From sequence record PP355091.1: DNA of 64,000 nt; one strand, written 5' to 3'. The notes beneath the pieces are model-generated. The model was not told the origin of the DNA and made no database searches. It saw nothing but the letters and a program-made list of their open reading frames with translations. The stretch comes from Escherichia phage 235Ecol030PP. Position numbers and translations under genes: made by a program. Shown in pieces: positions 47,521 to 56,200 of the stretch (position 1 is its first letter; every line of letters begins with the position of its first letter).

Positions 47521-48549
<1,029 letters not shown>

Positions 48550-48559
48550 ATTATTTTCC

Positions 48560-48802
48560 TTAAACAGACTTTTTCACAATTTTCCAATCAGCTTTAAACT
48601 GTTCAACGTCAGAATGGTAAATCCAAAATCCTGCGCTTTCTCCGTCTTCATAAAGAGGACATCCATCGCATTCATCTTCCCATCCCATATCACGTAAAAG
48701 ATGTTCAGCTTTTTCAACAAGTTCAGAATCTTTACCGATGATATTAAAATACCATTTACCTCTAACTTCTGAATCTTTGATGCTCTGGCGTTGTAATCTC
48801 AT
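48560..48802 (-). CDS. hypothetical 80-aa protein (frd-32 cluster)
   Basis: ATG start; CDGC motif. Confidence 0.45.
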   Translation of the reverse strand: MRLQRQSIKDSEVRGKWYFNIIGKDSELVEKAEHLLRDMGWEDECDGCPLYEDGESAGFWIYHSDVEQFKADWKIVKKSV

Positions 48803-48862
48803 TTTATTCTCCTCAGTAGTTGATAGGGTAATAGTATCACACTACTACCCTGTTGTAAACAA

Positions 48863-49123
48863 TTATTTTTGAATTTTATCGAGCCACTTACCAAGCTTAA
48901 TCATTTCTTTAGTAGCCTTTTCCATACTTCTGAACTTAACCAATAGAGGATAGGTATCGACACCCATAACTAAACTGGTTACAAGACTGTGTTCACCCAC
49001 AAGCCATAACGAATACGTTTGAATATCGAGTCCGTAATTTCTGTCTTTATGGACCCGTACACCCATCACTTCAAATTTCTCACTAGCTTTTTCTACCGCA
49101 TCCAGGAAATCATCTTTAGTCAT
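48863..49123 (-). CDS. hypothetical 86-aa protein (frd-32 cluster)
   Basis: Start set to ATG 49123 (AAGG SD), 2 nt after the upstream ORF stop. Confidence 0.4.
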   Translation of the reverse strand: MTKDDFLDAVEKASEKFEVMGVRVHKDRNYGLDIQTYSLWLVGEHSLVTSLVMGVDTYPLLVKFRSMEKATKEMIKLGKWLDKIQK

Positions 49124-49124
49124 A

Positions 49125-49511
49125 TTAGGCCTTAAAAGTTTTTCGCAAAAGTTCAATGATTTCATCTACATTGTTTTCGTCAACAATGCAGTGAATTTTT
49201 GTTACGCCAGAAACCTTGTCTTTGACTTCATCCTCTTCAGAAGTTGGTTCTTTATATTCGCGGAAACAATAAAACTCTTCTTCACTAAGTTCAAAATAAT
49301 CATCACCCATACCATCATCATTATAGATTTCACCGTTAGCACAAATGATTTCGGTTACATAATCAAAGCCATCTAAACTTGATATTGATTTAACTTCAAA
49401 CCAACCACCATTTTCTTGAATGATGCCGACCATATTAGCATTTGATGAACTAATATCAATGAAAGATTTAATACGGTGTGGATTTAACTCGTATTTTTTG
49501 CCGATTTCCAT
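49125..49511 (-). CDS. hypothetical acidic 128-aa protein (frd-32 cluster)
   Basis: Start set to ATG 49511 (GAGGA SD); hairpin upstream. Confidence 0.45.
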   Translation of the reverse strand: MEIGKKYELNPHRIKSFIDISSSNANMVGIIQENGGWFEVKSISSLDGFDYVTEIICANGEIYNDDGMGDDYFELSEEEFYCFREYKEPTSEEDEVKDKVSGVTKIHCIVDENNVDEIIELLRKTFKA

Positions 49512-49556
49512 TTTGATTTTCCTCATTTTAATAGGGGCTTAATAGCCCCTTGATAA

Positions 49557-49784
49557 TTATTGTTCAATCAATCCCATGTAAAATTCTGCGTCTTCAGAAT
49601 CCATACCATCACAATATTCATTAGCCATAAAGCGGGTGAGGTCTTCAAGAGGACCTTCAATAACGATTTGAATACTCCAAAACTTAGAATCTTGTACACT
49701 TGTGATACTAAGTTCAGGATAACGATTACGAATAATTTCTTCAATATATTCAAAATCAACGATGTCAATATCAACTTTAGCCAT
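49557..49784 (-). CDS. hypothetical acidic 75-aa protein (frd-32 cluster)
   Basis: ATG start. Confidence 0.45.
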
Positions 49785-49889
49785 ATTGTTTTCCTCTTTA
49801 ATCGTCAGCAGTATTGCCGATAGTTGTATAGTACCATAGAAGAACAGGGATGTAAACCGTTTTGTGAAAAAAATTTTGAAATAAAAAAA

Positions 49890-49907
49890 GGGACCTCTAG
49901 GGTCCCC
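49890..49907 (-). terminator. terminator after gene 32
   Basis: Minus strand GGGACC CUAGA GGUCCC then UUUUUUUAUUU. Confidence 0.65.
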
Positions 49908-49929
49908 AATTAATTAGTAATATAATCTA

Positions 49930-50835
49930 TTAAAGGTCATTCAAAAGGTCATCCAGGTCCGTGTCATCAGCACTAGATGAACTGCCAGAGCTTGAGCTCA
50001 TAAAATCATCTTCAGTTTTTGTATTGAAGTCATCAACATTGAATGCATCCAAATCATCAGCAACTTTATCAGCTTTCTTAGCAGCAGTTGCAGCGGCACC
50101 GCCCATCACAGCAGTTCCCATAACTTGACCGAATTTAGTGCTCAGTTCTTCAAATGATTTGAATTTATCTTTAGAAGTCATTTCAGAAAGGTCAACCATT
50201 TGTTCGAACAGTTCTTTCTGGAAAGATTCATCATCAATGTTTGGAATCGCAGATTGATTCAGGAATTTAGATTCATCGTAGTTACTAAATCCAGAAACTT
50301 GTTTAACTTTCAGTACAAAGTTAGCACCTTCCCACGGACAAGTTACATCAACTGGAGTTTCACCCATTTCAACATCAACCGCAATCATCGCGTTGATTTT
50401 ATCCCAGATTTTCTTACCGAAACGATATTTAAATACTTTACCTTCATTTTCTGGAGCAGCTGGGTCTTTTACTACAAGAATGTTAGCCCAGTAAGAAGTT
50501 TTACGTTTAACAAGACTGTACTCTTTATTGTCAGTGTTGTACAGATCATTTTTACTGATGTATTGACATACTGGACAAGAATCGTAATCACCGTGGGTAG
50601 ATGAACACGTTTCAATATACCATTTGCCATTTTTCTTGAAACCATGATTTACAAGAATTGCAAATGGTGCTTGTTCATCATTTTTAGACGGAAGAAAACG
50701 AATTACTGCTTGACCGTTACCCGCATTATCGAGTTTCAGTTTCCACTCGCCTTTATCTTCAGAAGAAAAACCTTTATTGCCATTCAGTTTAGCCATTTGT
50801 GCAGCGAGTTCAGCAGTAGATTTACGTTTAAACAT
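49930..50835 (-). CDS. 32: single-stranded DNA-binding protein
   Basis: 301 aa as T4 gp32; zinc ligands (H..C..C..C); acidic Ser-rich C-terminus. Confidence 0.96.
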
Positions 50836-50918
50836 TTTTATTTCCTTTTTAATTTAATTAACAGTTGGTGCTATGACGATGTATGACCTCATAGCTGGTC
50901 AGTGAGATAATTATAATC
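50836..50918 (-). promoter_or_regulatory. gene 32 mRNA leader / translational operator region
   Basis: A/U-rich UUAAA repeats (TTAATTAAATTAAAAAGGAAATAAAA) before ATG, preceded by GC-containing structured segment; gp32 autoregulation is established for T4. Confidence 0.5.
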
Positions 50919-50926
50919 TATTTATA
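50919..50926 (-). promoter_or_regulatory. late promoter (minus strand) for gene 32
   Basis: Plus strand TATTTATA about 84 nt upstream of gene 32 ATG. Confidence 0.55.
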
Positions 50927-50934
50927 ATAAGCAA

Positions 50935-51588
50935 TTAATACTTGCAAGATTTCACAGTTTCAATGAAAACATTTTTAGCTTTCTGTGAATCAATATTTAA
51001 AATTTTTCTATAAGCCTTTAACTTTATAGAATAATTATTCCAGACTAAATTATCAGTCTGTTCATCATGTTTATCAATTATATTTAAAAACGAATCAAGC
51101 AAGATAAACGTCTCAAACGAAATTATATTCGATTGTAGAAGTTTAAAAATATAACTTGACTGAACTTTTGGATTATATTCAAAAATTTCTTTAAAAGCAG
51201 AAACTTCAACTTTTTTACTAAAATAGTAAATATTGCGAATATCTTCTTCAAACTTAAATTTAATTTGCTTTAAGCGTCCGATATATTCACGATAAAACAC
51301 AAGTGCATCAGCGTCAGAGATGTCACCAATCCAAGCATCTTGGTTAGCAACAAGATTGCTTATAAAGATTAAAGCAAGTTCCTTTAATTTATATTTTTCT
51401 GATAACTTCTGGAAAAAATACTTATCCCTTCGCTTTTGATAAGCGGCATCAGACACCCGCATGCACCAATTATACTTAATAACATCATACTTTCCATTCA
51501 TATGCTGTTTTATCATTAAGTATAATTTATAAACTGATTTACCATCAATGTATCTTTCACCACCAGCAGGCATGCGGAGTTTAATCAT
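50935..51588 (-). CDS. 59: helicase loader
   Basis: 217 aa as T4 gp59. Confidence 0.9.
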   Translation of the reverse strand: MIKLRMPAGGERYIDGKSVYKLYLMIKQHMNGKYDVIKYNWCMRVSDAAYQKRRDKYFFQKLSEKYKLKELALIFISNLVANQDAWIGDISDADALVFYREYIGRLKQIKFKFEEDIRNIYYFSKKVEVSAFKEIFEYNPKVQSSYIFKLLQSNIISFETFILLDSFLNIIDKHDEQTDNLVWNNYSIKLKAYRKILNIDSQKAKNVFIETVKSCKY

Positions 51589-51923
51589 AGTAGAAAATCT
51601 AATGTATTAGTTTTTTCACAACGAACAACAGAAGGACGTAAAAGATTTTCGTCAATAGCTTCTGACTGAATTTTTTCAATTATACCCGAAGGAATAAATT
51701 TAGCAAATTGAGTTTCAGGAATAGAGTTTTCTTCCAAGAATGCTGTCGTAGCTTCAAGATAACTCATTCCAAACTCTTCTACCATTTTTTCAATAATAAA
51801 TCCGTTTTCTTGACGGTCAAGAAGCTTTGCTATTTCATCCTTTTCTTTCTTGATTGAAAGTTCTTTTTCTGAAAGACCGGTCTCATCGACCGGACGAATA
51901 TCATTTAGAGAAAACTGTGTCAT
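51585..51923 (-). CDS. 33: late transcription co-activator
   Basis: Start set to ATG 51923 (112 aa as T4 gp33; track start is TTG). Confidence 0.85.
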   Translation of the reverse strand: MTQFSLNDIRPVDETGLSEKELSIKKEKDEIAKLLDRQENGFIIEKMVEEFGMSYLEATTAFLEENSIPETQFAKFIPSGIIEKIQSEAIDENLLRPSVVRCEKTNTLDFLL

Positions 51924-52170
51924 AAAGTTCAACTACCTCTTCAGTTTCAGCTTCAAACACATCACGGTTATCTTTATGATACAAAGCTAATAGACGATTA
52001 AACATCTTACCATCAACGCCAAGTTCATCTTTGGCACGAATTCGAATATCTTTAATCAGTTCATTATAACCGGAAATTTTCAGTTTATGATCAGATGCTT
52101 CTTTAATAAATTTAGCCAAGTCTTCGCCATGGATAGCTTCATCAAATTCAACCATTTCTTTTTTAGCCAT
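51901..52170 (-). CDS. dsbA: dsDNA-binding protein
   Basis: 89 aa; T4 position between rnh and 33. Confidence 0.8.
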   Translation of the reverse strand: MAKKEMVEFDEAIHGEDLAKFIKEASDHKLKISGYNELIKDIRIRAKDELGVDGKMFNRLLALYHKDNRDVFEAETEEVVELYDTVFSK

Positions 52171-52178
52171 TATTCACC

Positions 52179-53096
52179 TCAAAATTCATTAATGCTATTA
52201 GTTAATTTAGAAAGACCCGCTTTTACAAAATATGAATAAATTTTGCCACGCGGTGGTAATTTATATGAATTATAGTAATTCACAATGTTTGAAGCAATAT
52301 TATCAGGAATATAATCAAAATCAATTAGAACTAAATTTTCTTTATAACGATTATATTCAGATTCAGTGAGAAGCACCTTAGCTTGCTCACGATCATTAGC
52401 AATAGCTTCAACGATTGAAGTTTTCATTGAAGGAGTTCGTTCACCTTCAACTCTGGTAAACCAAAAGTCAGATCGTACTTTAACTGAAGCAACGTTATCC
52501 TTTTTGTCGCCTTTAAGGATTTTAGTCATACAGTCAATTTCAGCAGAACCGCTTTTAATTTTAACCCATTTCTTATGCATCGGTGACCATTGCTTAACAT
52601 TTGGATATTTGTGAAGCTGTGTAAAGTCACCATCCGATGAAATGATTAAAATCTTGTGTCCTTCTAAAGAGAACTTTTTAACAAGAACAGCAATGTGGTC
52701 ATCTGCTTCATACTTATCAATATCCATAACAATGTATGGCATATAAGCTTTCAATTCATCTATAACTTTATGGCTGGATTCAAAATAACCTTCCCAGTCC
52801 CAAGTAGATTCTTCTCGTGCTTTTCCACGGTTTTTCTTGTAATAGTAAGCAAAATCACGACGCCAATATCCAGATTTCGCGTTATCAATACACAGCACAA
52901 TTTTAGTGTATCCAAGCGTTTTTGCTTTTTTGACATTAAACTTAATTGAGTTCAATATCAAATGACGAACCATTGATAAATTAATTTTTTCTTTATCCGG
53001 GAAGTTTACTAGAGCAGTTGAAAGCGCAATTTGACTAAAGTCAATTAAGCAGATTCCTTCTTTGTAATCTTCATCCAACATCATTTCTAAATCCAT
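52179..53096 (-). CDS. rnh: RNase H (5'-3' exonuclease / flap endonuclease)
   Basis: Start set to ATG 53096 (MDLEMM, 305 aa, GAGG SD; track start is TTG). Confidence 0.9.
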   Translation of the reverse strand: MDLEMMLDEDYKEGICLIDFSQIALSTALVNFPDKEKINLSMVRHLILNSIKFNVKKAKTLGYTKIVLCIDNAKSGYWRRDFAYYYKKNRGKAREESTWDWEGYFESSHKVIDELKAYMPYIVMDIDKYEADDHIAVLVKKFSLEGHKILIISSDGDFTQLHKYPNVKQWSPMHKKWVKIKSGSAEIDCMTKILKGDKKDNVASVKVRSDFWFTRVEGERTPSMKTSIVEAIANDREQAKVLLTESEYNRYKENLVLIDFDYIPDNIASNIVNYYNSYKLPPRGKIYSYFVKAGLSKLTNSINEF

Positions 53097-53125
53097 ATGA
53101 ACCTCGTTCAATTAGTGAGATTTCT

Positions 53126-53155
53126 ATTATATACTATCTAAATCTTAAAGTAAAC
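53126..53155 (-). promoter_or_regulatory. early promoter for rnh: GTTTAC, 18 nt, TATAAT
   Basis: Minus strand GTTTAC...TATAAT about 23 nt upstream of rnh ATG with GAGG SD. Confidence 0.55.
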
Positions 53156-53158
53156 AGG

Positions 53159-53166
53159 TATAAATA
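53159..53166 (+). promoter_or_regulatory. late promoter TATAAATA for gene 34
   Basis: Exact TATAAATA about 35 nt before ATG. Confidence 0.7.
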
Positions 53167-53200
53167 CTTATTATTGAAAACACAATAGGAGCCCGGGAGA

Positions 53201-56200
53201 ATGGCCGAGATTAAAAGAAAGTTCAGAGCAGAAGATGGTCTGGACGCAGGTGGCGATAAAATAATCAACGTAGCTTTAGCTGATCGTACCGTAGGAACTG
53301 ACGGTGTTAACGTTGATTACTTAATTCAAGAAAACACAGTTCAACAATATGATCCAACTCGTGGATATTTAAAAGATTTTGTAATCATTTATAATAATCG
53401 TTTTTGGGCAGCAACGGATGATATTCCAAAACCTGCTGGAAATTTTAATAGAATTCGTTGGAAAGCATTACGTACTGATGCTGTATATACAACCGTATCA
53501 TCTGGACCATATCAATTAAAATCCGGAGAAGCAATTTCAGTAGATACATCAGTTGGCAATGACATTGAGTTTACTTTACCACCTTCTCCGCTTGATGGAG
53601 AAACCGTAATAATTCAAGATATCGGTGGAAAACCTGGCATAAATCAGGTTAAAATAAATTCTTCAAATCAGAGTATTGTCAATTTTAGAGGTGAACAGGT
53701 ACGTTCAGTTTTAATGACTCATCCAAAGTCACAGATGGTATTCATTTTTAATAATCGTTTGTGGCAAATGTATGTTGCTGATTATAGCAGAGAAGCTGCG
53801 ATTGTTACTCCATCGACTGCATATCAAGCACAATCTAATGATTTTATCGTGCGTAGATTTACTTCCGCTGCGCCGATTAATGTTAAGCTTCCAAGATTTG
53901 CTAATCATGGCGATATTATTAATTTCGTCGATTTAGATAAATTAAATCCACTTTATCATACAATTGTCACGACATATGATGAAACGACGTCAGTGCAAGA
54001 AGTTGGAACTCATTCCATTGAAGGCCGTACAACGATTGACGGTTTCTTGATGTTTGATGATAATGAGAAATTGTGGAGATTGTTTGACGGGGATAGTAAA
54101 GCACGTTTACGTATTATAACAACTAATTCTAATATTCGTCCAAATGAAGAAGTCATGGTGTTTGGTGCGAATAATGGAACACCCCAAACAATTGAACTTC
54201 AGCTTCCGACTGATATTTCTGTTGGTGATACTGTCAAAATTTCCATGAATTACATGAGAAAAGGACAAACAGTTAAAATCAAAGCTGCAGGTGAAGATAA
54301 AATTGCTTCTTCAGTTCAATTGCTGCAATTCCCAAAACGTTCAGAATATCCGCCTGAAGCTGAATGGGTAAAAGTTCAAGAATTAGTTTTTAATGGTGAA
54401 ACTAATTATGTTCCAGTTTTGGAGCTTGCTTATATTGAAGATTCTGATGGAAAATATTGGGTTGTACAGCAAAACGTTCCAACTGTAGAAAGAGTAGATT
54501 CTTTAAATGATTCTACTAGAGCAAGATTAGGCGTAATTGCTTTAGCTACACAAGCTCAAGCTAATGTCGATTTAGAAAATTCTCCACAAAAAGAATTAGC
54601 AATTACTCCAGAAACGTTAGCTAATCGTACTGCTACTGAAACTCGTAGAGGTATTGCAAGAATAGCAACTACTGCTCAAGTGAATCAGAACACCACATTC
54701 TCTTTTGCTGATGATATTATCATTACTCCTAAAAAGCTGAATGAAAGAACTGCTACAGAAACTCGTAGAGGTGTTGCTGAAATTGCTACGCAGCAAGAAA
54801 CTAATGCAGGTACTGATGATACTACAATCATTACTCCTAAAAAGCTTCAAGCTCGTCAAGGTTCTGAATCATTATCTGGTATTGTAACTTTTGTATCTAC
54901 TGCAGGTGCTACTCCAGCTTCTAGTCGTGAATTAAATGGTACAAATGTTTATAATAAAAACACTAATAATTTAGTTGTTTCGCCTAAAGCTTTGGATCAG
55001 TATAAAGCTACGCCTACTCAACAGGGTGCAGTAATTTTAGCAGTTGAAAGTGAAGTAATTGCTGGACAAAGTCAGCAAGGATGGGCAAATGCTGTTGTAA
55101 CGCCAGAAACGTTACATAAAAAGACATCAACTGATGCAAGAATTGGTTTAATTGAAATTGCTACACAAAGTGAAGTTAATACAGGAACTGACTATACTCG
55201 TGCAGTCACTCCTAAAACTTTAAATGACCGTAGAGCAACTGAAAGTTTAAGTGGTATAGCTGAAATTGCTACACAAGTTGAATTCGACGCAGGCGTCGAC
55301 GATACTCGTATCTCTACACCATTAAAAATTAAAACTAGATTTAATAGTACTGATCGTACTTCTGTTGTTGCTCTATCTGGATTAGTTGAATCAGGAACTC
55401 TCTGGGACCATTATACCCTTAATATTCTTGAAGCAAATGAGACACAGCGTGGTACACTTCGTGTAGCTACACAAGTTGAAGCTGCTGCAGGAAAATTAGA
55501 TAATGTTTTAATAACTCCTAAAAAGCTTTTAGGTACTAAATCTACTGAAGCACAAGAAGGTGTTATTAAAGTTGCAACTCGGTCTGAAACTGTAACTGGA
55601 ACGTCAGCAAATACTGCTGTATCTCCAAAAAATTTAAAATGGATTGTGCAGAGTGAACCTACTTGGGCAGCTACTACTGCGATAAGAGGTTTTGTTAAAA
55701 CCTCATCTGGTTCAATTACGTTCGTTGGTAATGATACGGTAGGTTCAACACAGCCATTAGAATCATATGAGAAAAATGGTTATGCAGTATCACCATATGA
55801 ATTAAATCGCGTATTAGCAAATTATTTGCCATTAAAAGCAAAAGCTGTAGATAGTAATTTATTAGATGGTCTAGATTCGCTCCAGTTCATTCGTAGGGAC
55901 ATTGCACAAACAGTTAATGGTTCACTAACCTTAACCCAACAAACGAATCTGAGTGCCCCTCTTGTATCATCTAGTACTGCTGCATTCGGTGGATCAGTTT
56001 CAGCAAATAGTACATTAACTATTTCTAATACTGGAACGGCAACTCGTCTGATTTTTGAGAAAGGACCTCAAACTGGAACAAACCCAGCTCAAACGATGAC
56101 AGTCAGAGTGTGGGGAAATCAATTTAGTGGGGAATCAGACACAACACGTTCTACCGTATTTGAAGTTAGTGATGAAACGTCTAGTCATTTTTATTCTCAG

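Follow-up and report, generated by a model that had tools for sequence, protein, structure and literature searches.

The spacer between genes 59 and 32 of Escherichia phage 235Ecol030PP raises the question of whether it carries the operator at which gp32, the single-stranded DNA binding protein, represses translation of its own mRNA, and in which of the known forms. The window considered here is a 64,000-nucleotide stretch of this phage (record PP355091.1), and the leader is taken as all 99 bases of the spacer (50934..50836, minus strand); the minus-strand orientation is an addition to an earlier note on this DNA, which had proposed that the gene 32 leader keeps the T4 operator architecture. 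We consider the leader very likely to be the phage T2 allele of the gene 32 autogenous translational operator, at which gp32 would bind and repress. On the minus strand the spacer reads UUGCUUAUUAUAAAUAGAUUAUAAUUAUCUCAC-UGACC-A-GCUAUGA-GGUCA-UACAUCG-UCAUAGC-ACCAACUGUUAAUUAAAUUAAAAAGGAAAUAAAA-AUG (Table 1), so the leader lies where the operator is expected, directly 5' of the gp32 open reading frame (ORF).

The gene downstream is gene 32. Its 301-aa product matches Pfam PF08804 at 7e-67 and is identical to T4 gp32 at 300/301 residues, with N232S as the sole difference. Both the N-terminal cooperativity segment (MFKRKST..., with the LAST motif KRKST) and the Zn-binding Cys77-X3-His-X5-Cys-X2-Cys90 are present. 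No segG lies between genes 59 and 32, which is the T2-type arrangement. An 80-aa ORF on the plus strand (50644..50886) runs antisense to the 5' end of gene 32 and to the leader, and was taken as a chance ORF.

Table 1. Features of the gene 59-gene 32 region in the window, listed in minus-strand order.
Feature	Position	Strand	Basis or remark
Gene 59 (gp59, helicase loader)	50935..51588	-	ORF list and Pfam
Gene 59 stop codon TAA	50937..50935	-	
MotA-box-like AATTGCTTAT	50927..50936	-	overlaps gene 59 stop codon; 11 bp upstream of TATAAT
TATAAATA, T4 late-promoter consensus	50919..50926	-	exact match; +1 expected near 50913
TATAAT, -10 of middle-promoter-like site	50910..50915	-	+1 expected near 50903, at the pseudoknot 5' edge
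AAUUA (RAUUW-type), candidate RNase E processing site	50908..50912	-	T4 alignment; -77..-73
Stem 1, 5' strand UGACC	50897..50901	-	pseudoknot search, covariation
Loop 1, single A	50896	-	invariant in all nine compact variants
Stem 2, 5' strand GCUAUGA	50889..50895	-	pseudoknot search, covariation
Stem 1, 3' strand GGUCA	50884..50888	-	pseudoknot search, covariation
Loop 2, UACAUCG	50877..50883	-	pseudoknot search; L2 in PMC5684407
Stem 2, 3' strand UCAUAGC	50870..50876	-	pseudoknot search, covariation, 2TPK match
A/U-rich, predicted unstructured tract ACCAACUGUUAAUUAAAUUAAAAAGGAAAUAAAA	50836..50869	-	presumed cooperative gp32-binding site over the ribosome-binding site
AACUGU motif	50861..50866	-	3 nt past pseudoknot
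UUAA-UUAAA-UUAAAAA units	50846..50861	-	
Shine-Dalgarno AAGGA (GG at -10/-9), within the A/U tract	50843..50847	-	read from sequence
Gene 32 start codon AUG	50835..50833	-	
Gene 32 (gp32, single-stranded DNA binding protein, presumed repressor)	49930..50835	-	ORF list, Pfam, T4 identity
Intrinsic-terminator-like hairpin and U run	49889..49907	-	23 nt past gene 32 stop codon

The source genome is a Tequatrovirus, and the spacer is widely shared: a 401-base query around it matches 512 phage records, while a 105-base query across it is 100% identical to phage T2 (PV958097) and finds 348 phage records at no less than 99% identity. Positions 50903..50868 of the window (minus strand) equal the 36-nt T2 gene 32 RNA of PDB 2TPK, as given in Table 1 of PMC5684407, at 35/36 positions, the sole mismatch being the 5' G of the construct. 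This RNA is the T2 gene 32 pseudoknot whose NMR structure was determined by Holland et al. 1999 (cited in PMC3014915, PMC5684407). The published operator model gives the T2 pseudoknot two coaxially stacked A-form stems (PMC535899, PMC3014915), and the 12-bp 'joint helix' described for its RNA, with loop UACAUCG named L2 (PMC5684407), equals the 5 + 7 bp found in the window. The T2/T6 pseudoknot likewise has helices of 5 and 7 bp, a 1-nt loop 1 and a 7-nt loop 2, UACAUCG. The element is therefore one already known, the T2 allele itself, and neither a new member nor a variant.

Although the leader shows no difference from T2, the coding sequence of the window is T4-like instead, and tblastn puts its gp32 at approximately 98% identity to that of T2 (PV958097) over residues 1-275. 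This mosaic junction (49930..50937, minus strand), in which a T2-type leader and 59-32 arrangement meet a T4-like gp32 (300/301), is consistent with an exchange around the segG/gene 32 region. The claim that the T4 operator architecture is preserved is supported; the leader has it as the T2 allele (35/36 positions of 2TPK), and in the copy number of its repeats has one UUAAA fewer than T4.

An exhaustive search of the leader for H-type pseudoknots returned one compact solution (50901..50870, minus strand), whose stems of 5 and 7 bp span -66..-35, in keeping with the 5' pseudoknot of about 28-32 nt with two stacked stems, starting some 67 nt ahead of the AUG, that is expected of the operator. 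The foldable GC-containing segment singled out in the earlier note, GAGGUCAUACAUCGUCAUAGCACC at 50891..50868, does fold, but it makes up just the 3' half of this pseudoknot; the partner strands UGACC and GCUAUGA lie at 50901..50889, within the region that the note itself covered. Judged from the single sequence, the pseudoknot is only moderately unusual: 76/5000 dinucleotide shuffles of the leader (1.5%) also give a compact pseudoknot with at least 12 Watson-Crick bp. Nested minimum free energy (MFE) folding, which cannot represent a pseudoknot, recovers stem 2 only and yields a z-score of -0.55. The pseudoknot part of the degenerate pattern used below is unique within the window. Rfam searches in E-value mode (48000..54000 and 50800..50960) returned no family at threshold, and Rfam appears to be without a family for the gene 32 pseudoknot.

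These figures, along with a UUAAA repeat array expected 0.52 times by chance, are what one would cite in favor of regarding the spacer as a mere promoter-bearing, AT-rich region in which pseudoknot and repeats arose fortuitously and have no function in RNA. Since the leader alone is mildly unusual, it is the comparative evidence that carries weight, and the decisive support is of this kind: the 2TPK match, the identity to T2 and, across the lineages compared, strong covariation. Gene 32 loci drawn from IMG/VR, from named phages and from a scan with a degenerate pattern provided nine distinct compact pseudoknots (window/T2, T4, Mosigvirus, Winklervirus and four other IMG/VR lineages). The scan, which combined pseudoknot and AACUGU, found 18 sites in IMG/VR, 13/18 of them directly upstream of gene 32. 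The 5' strand of stem 2 takes the forms GCUAUGA, GCUACGA, GGUGCAA, GUUGCAA, GGUGUGA, GAUGUGA and GAUGCAA, each with a matching 3' strand (GGUGCAA occurs with two alternative 3' strands), and stem 1 appears as UGACC, UGCC, AUACC, GUCC, AUGCC or UACC with corresponding partners.

When the nine pseudoknots are aligned at equal length, 95.4% of cells are paired and 7/12 pairs have changed on both sides, a covariation score reached by 0/500 shuffles; when the 3' partners are displaced by 1-3 columns, pairing falls to 26-47%. The covariance check that the earlier note had proposed thus comes out in favor of the pseudoknot. The equal-length alignment was N-padded, and since its stem 1 columns were positioned manually according to the structure, the counts for stem 1 are biased toward that structure. 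Because of this manual layout, stem 2 was counted again on an unforced MAFFT alignment, where it is 100% paired with 4/7 pairs changed on both sides. The free alignment was kept for stem 2 alone and rejected for both stems together, as MAFFT misplaces the 3' strand of stem 1 owing to differences in loop length.

Compensatory change in 7/12 pairs over nine lineages is hard to reconcile with a fortuitous fold, as are the solved NMR structure and the fact that Acinetobacter phages and L028/L029, two further gene 32 loci, retain this topology at different dimensions. We therefore regard a chance origin as having a next to negligible probability. Alternatively, the conserved sequence could be an element acting in DNA, for instance the target or boundary of insertion for the SegG homing endonuclease. 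T4-type genomes carry segG exactly at this place, they become homologous to the window again only at 50898, inside stem 1, and the T4 segG reading frame overlaps the 5' strand of the pseudoknot (PMC535899). However, the compensatory changes are strand-specific and include G-U pairs, which is a signature of RNA, and lineages without any segG retain the pseudoknot. The strand-specific character of these changes contradicts the chance and DNA-level readings alike, and a DNA element appears highly improbable as the reason for conservation, leaving the RNA operator as the preferred reading.

The leaders with other dimensions form an extended H-type pseudoknot, in which the loop of an 8-bp hairpin pairs with a downstream ...CAUC strand. 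This arrangement was seen in L028/L029 (loop pairing GGUGUAG/CUACAUC) and in the Acinetobacter phages AB1I1P (L091; UGCAC/GUGCA) and Berthold (L094; GGUGUAC/GUACAUC, then ACCAACUGUU), with a compensated C-G to U-A difference between the latter two. No pseudoknot was detectable in the Jiaodavirus/Kanagawavirus-type leaders, in JS98 or in the Krischvirus phage Makalu_003; for Krischvirus, this fits the literature on RB49 (PMC3014915, PMC535899).

Between the pseudoknot and the start codon, the leader has the A/U-rich, unstructured, UUAAA-type tract that had been described before the ATG, and its 34 nt (50869..50836) bear out that description: A+U content is 82%, versus a window average of 63.6%, mean predicted P(unpaired) is 0.75, and the tract is unpaired in both MFE and centroid folds. 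The Shine-Dalgarno sequence is followed, before the AUG, by a further unit, AAAUAAAA. As in the operator, the repeats and the ribosome-binding site both fall inside the tract, though it is shorter than in T4, for which an unstructured region of >40 nt with UUAAA/UAAA repeats has been described (PMC535899, PMC3014915). With one UUAAA fewer, the operator tract is therefore 5 nt shorter than that of T4. Among close Tequatroviruses, the number of internal UUAAA units shifts the distance from pseudoknot to AUG in 5-nt steps: one such unit is present in the window, T2 and HY01, two are present in T4 and three in ACG-C40. By itself the array is no more than would be expected by chance in an AT-rich genome (the 0.52 matches expected allow for one mismatch), and it is too short for Tandem Repeats Finder, which consequently made no call on the leader.

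The best Rfam match to the leader was to the DUF2815 RNA (RF03084; 50833..50889, minus strand), at 19.1 bits versus a gathering score of 41.2. This motif presumably lies upstream of DUF2815 genes, which we take to encode a phage single-stranded-DNA-binding protein family. The similarity is confined to the ribosome-binding region from UUAAAAAGGAAAUAA to AUG, the hairpin of the family is unmatched and its pair was flagged as non-canonical, and the leader was accordingly set aside as a member.

Transcription of the leader probably starts at two overlapping promoters, a late one (TATAAATA) and a middle one (MotA box and TATAAT). The late promoter, which the earlier note had already located right after the gene 59 stop, is present at the level of sequence: TATAAATA starts 8 nt past the TAA. 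T4 late promoters have this sequence at about -13..-6 of a gp55-dependent start. There are 18 copies of TATAAATA in the window versus 8.5 expected, and it also precedes the pseudoknot in the leaders of Mosigvirus, Winklervirus, L019, L024 and the Acinetobacter phages. The middle-promoter-like site (50910..50936) is absent from that note; it overlaps TATAAATA, and its start would fall approximately 2 nt before stem 1. MotA boxes follow the consensus wwwTGCTTtA and are found 12 +/- 1 bp upstream of the -10 element TAtaaT (PMC2988021). The TATAAT of the window is perfect, and AATTGCTTAT departs from the consensus tA at its last two positions; there the strict regular expression wwTGCTT[TC]A fails and misses the site, which we therefore term MotA-box-like. 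Yersinia phage fPS-90, identical in sequence here, carries the annotation 'predicted middle promoter' at that position. A sigma-70 promoter scan did not flag the leader promoters and found fewer promoter-like matches in the region than in shuffles; a weak match on the plus strand (50883..50911) was set aside.

RNase E probably shortens longer transcripts by cutting at the conserved AAUUA immediately before the pseudoknot. The window shares AAUUAU (50912..50907), 5 nt before stem 1, with the T4 -71 site (GCGA followed by AUUAU), and cleavage at -71 is conserved in five T4-related phages (PMC3014915). This proximity bears on another possible function, in which the pseudoknot would serve mainly as a 5'-end stabilizer of a long-lived gene 32 mRNA against RNase E or 5'-end-dependent decay. 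In T4, no mRNAs are more stable than those of gene 32, and RNase E processes every one of them at -71, a short distance before the pseudoknot (PMC3014915). In the window, 6 nt (50907..50902) separate AAUUA from stem 1, and a TATAAT-driven start would lie about 2 nt from it; with processing or initiation so close to stem 1, the RNA would in either case begin almost directly with the pseudoknot. Published repression, however, requires the pseudoknot together with UUAAA elements, and gp32 footprints include the pseudoknot (PMC535899). We thus find it unlikely that stabilization is the main role. Given a very stable mRNA and processing and start sites just 5' of the structure, it is most plausibly a function added to that of the translational operator rather than an alternative to it.

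For that operator function, we infer from experiments with T4 and RB69 that gp32 binds the leader, nucleates at the pseudoknot, spreads cooperatively and represses, and the same mechanism is by far the best explanation here because the leader is exactly that of T2 and gp32 is one residue away from that of T4. The 5' end of the mRNA leader would fold into a 5-bp stem 1 stacked on a 7-bp stem 2. Once in excess over the available single-stranded DNA, gp32 would bind at the pseudoknot and spread cooperatively in the 3' direction over the 34-nt A/U-rich UUAA(A) tract, and the resulting coat over the Shine-Dalgarno sequence and AUG would block ribosome entry. New single-stranded DNA would then titrate gp32 off the leader, allowing translation to resume. 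The published model has the same order of events, with gp32 at the pseudoknot first and cooperative coating of the UUAA(A) tract thereafter (PMC535899, PMC3014915). In T4, autogenous repression needs both the pseudoknot and the UUAAA elements, and the region of the RNA protected by gp32 runs from G(+3) to U(-70) (PMC535899).

The T4 operator, with its pseudoknot at about -67 to -40 followed by a UUAAA/UAAA tract (PMC535899, PMC3014915), resembles that of the window in position, stem 2, the ACCAACUGUUAA junction, Shine-Dalgarno and AUG context, and the repressor protein. It differs in stem 1 (UGCC/GGUA, 4 bp with one G-U), in loop 2 (AAGUG), in the segG that intervenes between genes 59 and 32, and in the distance of the nearest TATAAATA, which lies within segG at -158 in T4 versus -91 in the window. 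RB69, a Mosigvirus, has the same architecture; its RNA structure has been probed and both gp32 proteins have been footprinted on its operator (PMC535899). Mosigvirus leaders are without segG and have TATAAATA upstream of the pseudoknot. The three in our sample (L016, RPN187 and JS09; RB69 itself was outside it) differ from the window by a compensated U-A to C-G change in stem 2 (GCUACGA/UCGUAGC), by AUACC/GGUAU in stem 1 and by a longer tract of different sequence. The Escherichia coli rpsO operator, under control of S15, is unrelated to the gene 32 operator in both sequence and protein. S15 traps the ribosome on the mRNA, instead of excluding it by cooperative coating. What the two systems have in common is an autogenous operator with a pseudoknot in the 5' leader, a comparison drawn in PMC3014915.

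The main value of these results is correct annotation, in that the regulatory leader of gene 32 can now be marked in a genome that joins a T2-type (segG-less) 59-32 junction with a T4-like gp32 and in which the classic autoregulatory circuit is intact as far as sequence goes. Some by-products may be useful to phage RNA biologists, namely the compensatory evidence from nine lineages, the extended pseudoknot geometry and two leader motifs, AACUGU and AUACA. A 2010 review urged broader study of gp32 autocontrol across diverse T4 relatives (PMC3014915).

With respect to these motifs, one conjecture, possible in our view but less than probable, is that the most deeply conserved part of the leader is not UUAAA but a set of short, lineage-specific single-stranded motifs that act as putative gp32 recognition or nucleation units. 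If true, this would explain autoregulation in phages without a pseudoknot and would bear on how a 'non-specific' single-stranded DNA binding protein selects its own mRNA. A limited full-text search of the gene 32 operator literature found no mention of AACUGU, nor of the motifs as gp32 recognition units.

In a survey of loci L005-L030, L085-L096 and L105, AACUGU was present in 29/34 non-redundant T4-like gene 32 leaders, with 47 copies versus 2.4 expected from the locus background, an excess that is not a probability because the leaders are phylogenetically related. It trails the pseudoknot in nearly all leaders that have one, from T4 to the Acinetobacter phages, at variable spacing. A role as a general translation-initiation element was considered and rejected, as just 4/65 AACTGT sites in the window are followed within 60 nt by the start of an ORF that has a Shine-Dalgarno sequence, an ATG and 50 codons or more. 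The marine, cyanophage-like and Schizo-T4-like leaders instead have 2-6 AUAC(A/G) repeats that run into the Shine-Dalgarno sequence. For this group (loci L032-L084 and L098, Vibrio phage V07), AUACA was counted 59 times versus 2.1 expected in the 70 nt upstream of gene 32 in 26 non-redundant leaders. AUAC(A/G) seems to be a lineage-specific equivalent of UUAAA and AACUGU, and together these patterns suggest that lineage-specific single-stranded repeat units may be a general feature of gene 32 leaders. Leaders without a pseudoknot contain 2-4 copies of AACUGU approximately 10-13 nt apart, and some of these copies lie within the 3' coding end of gene 59, where they occur in three codon phases.
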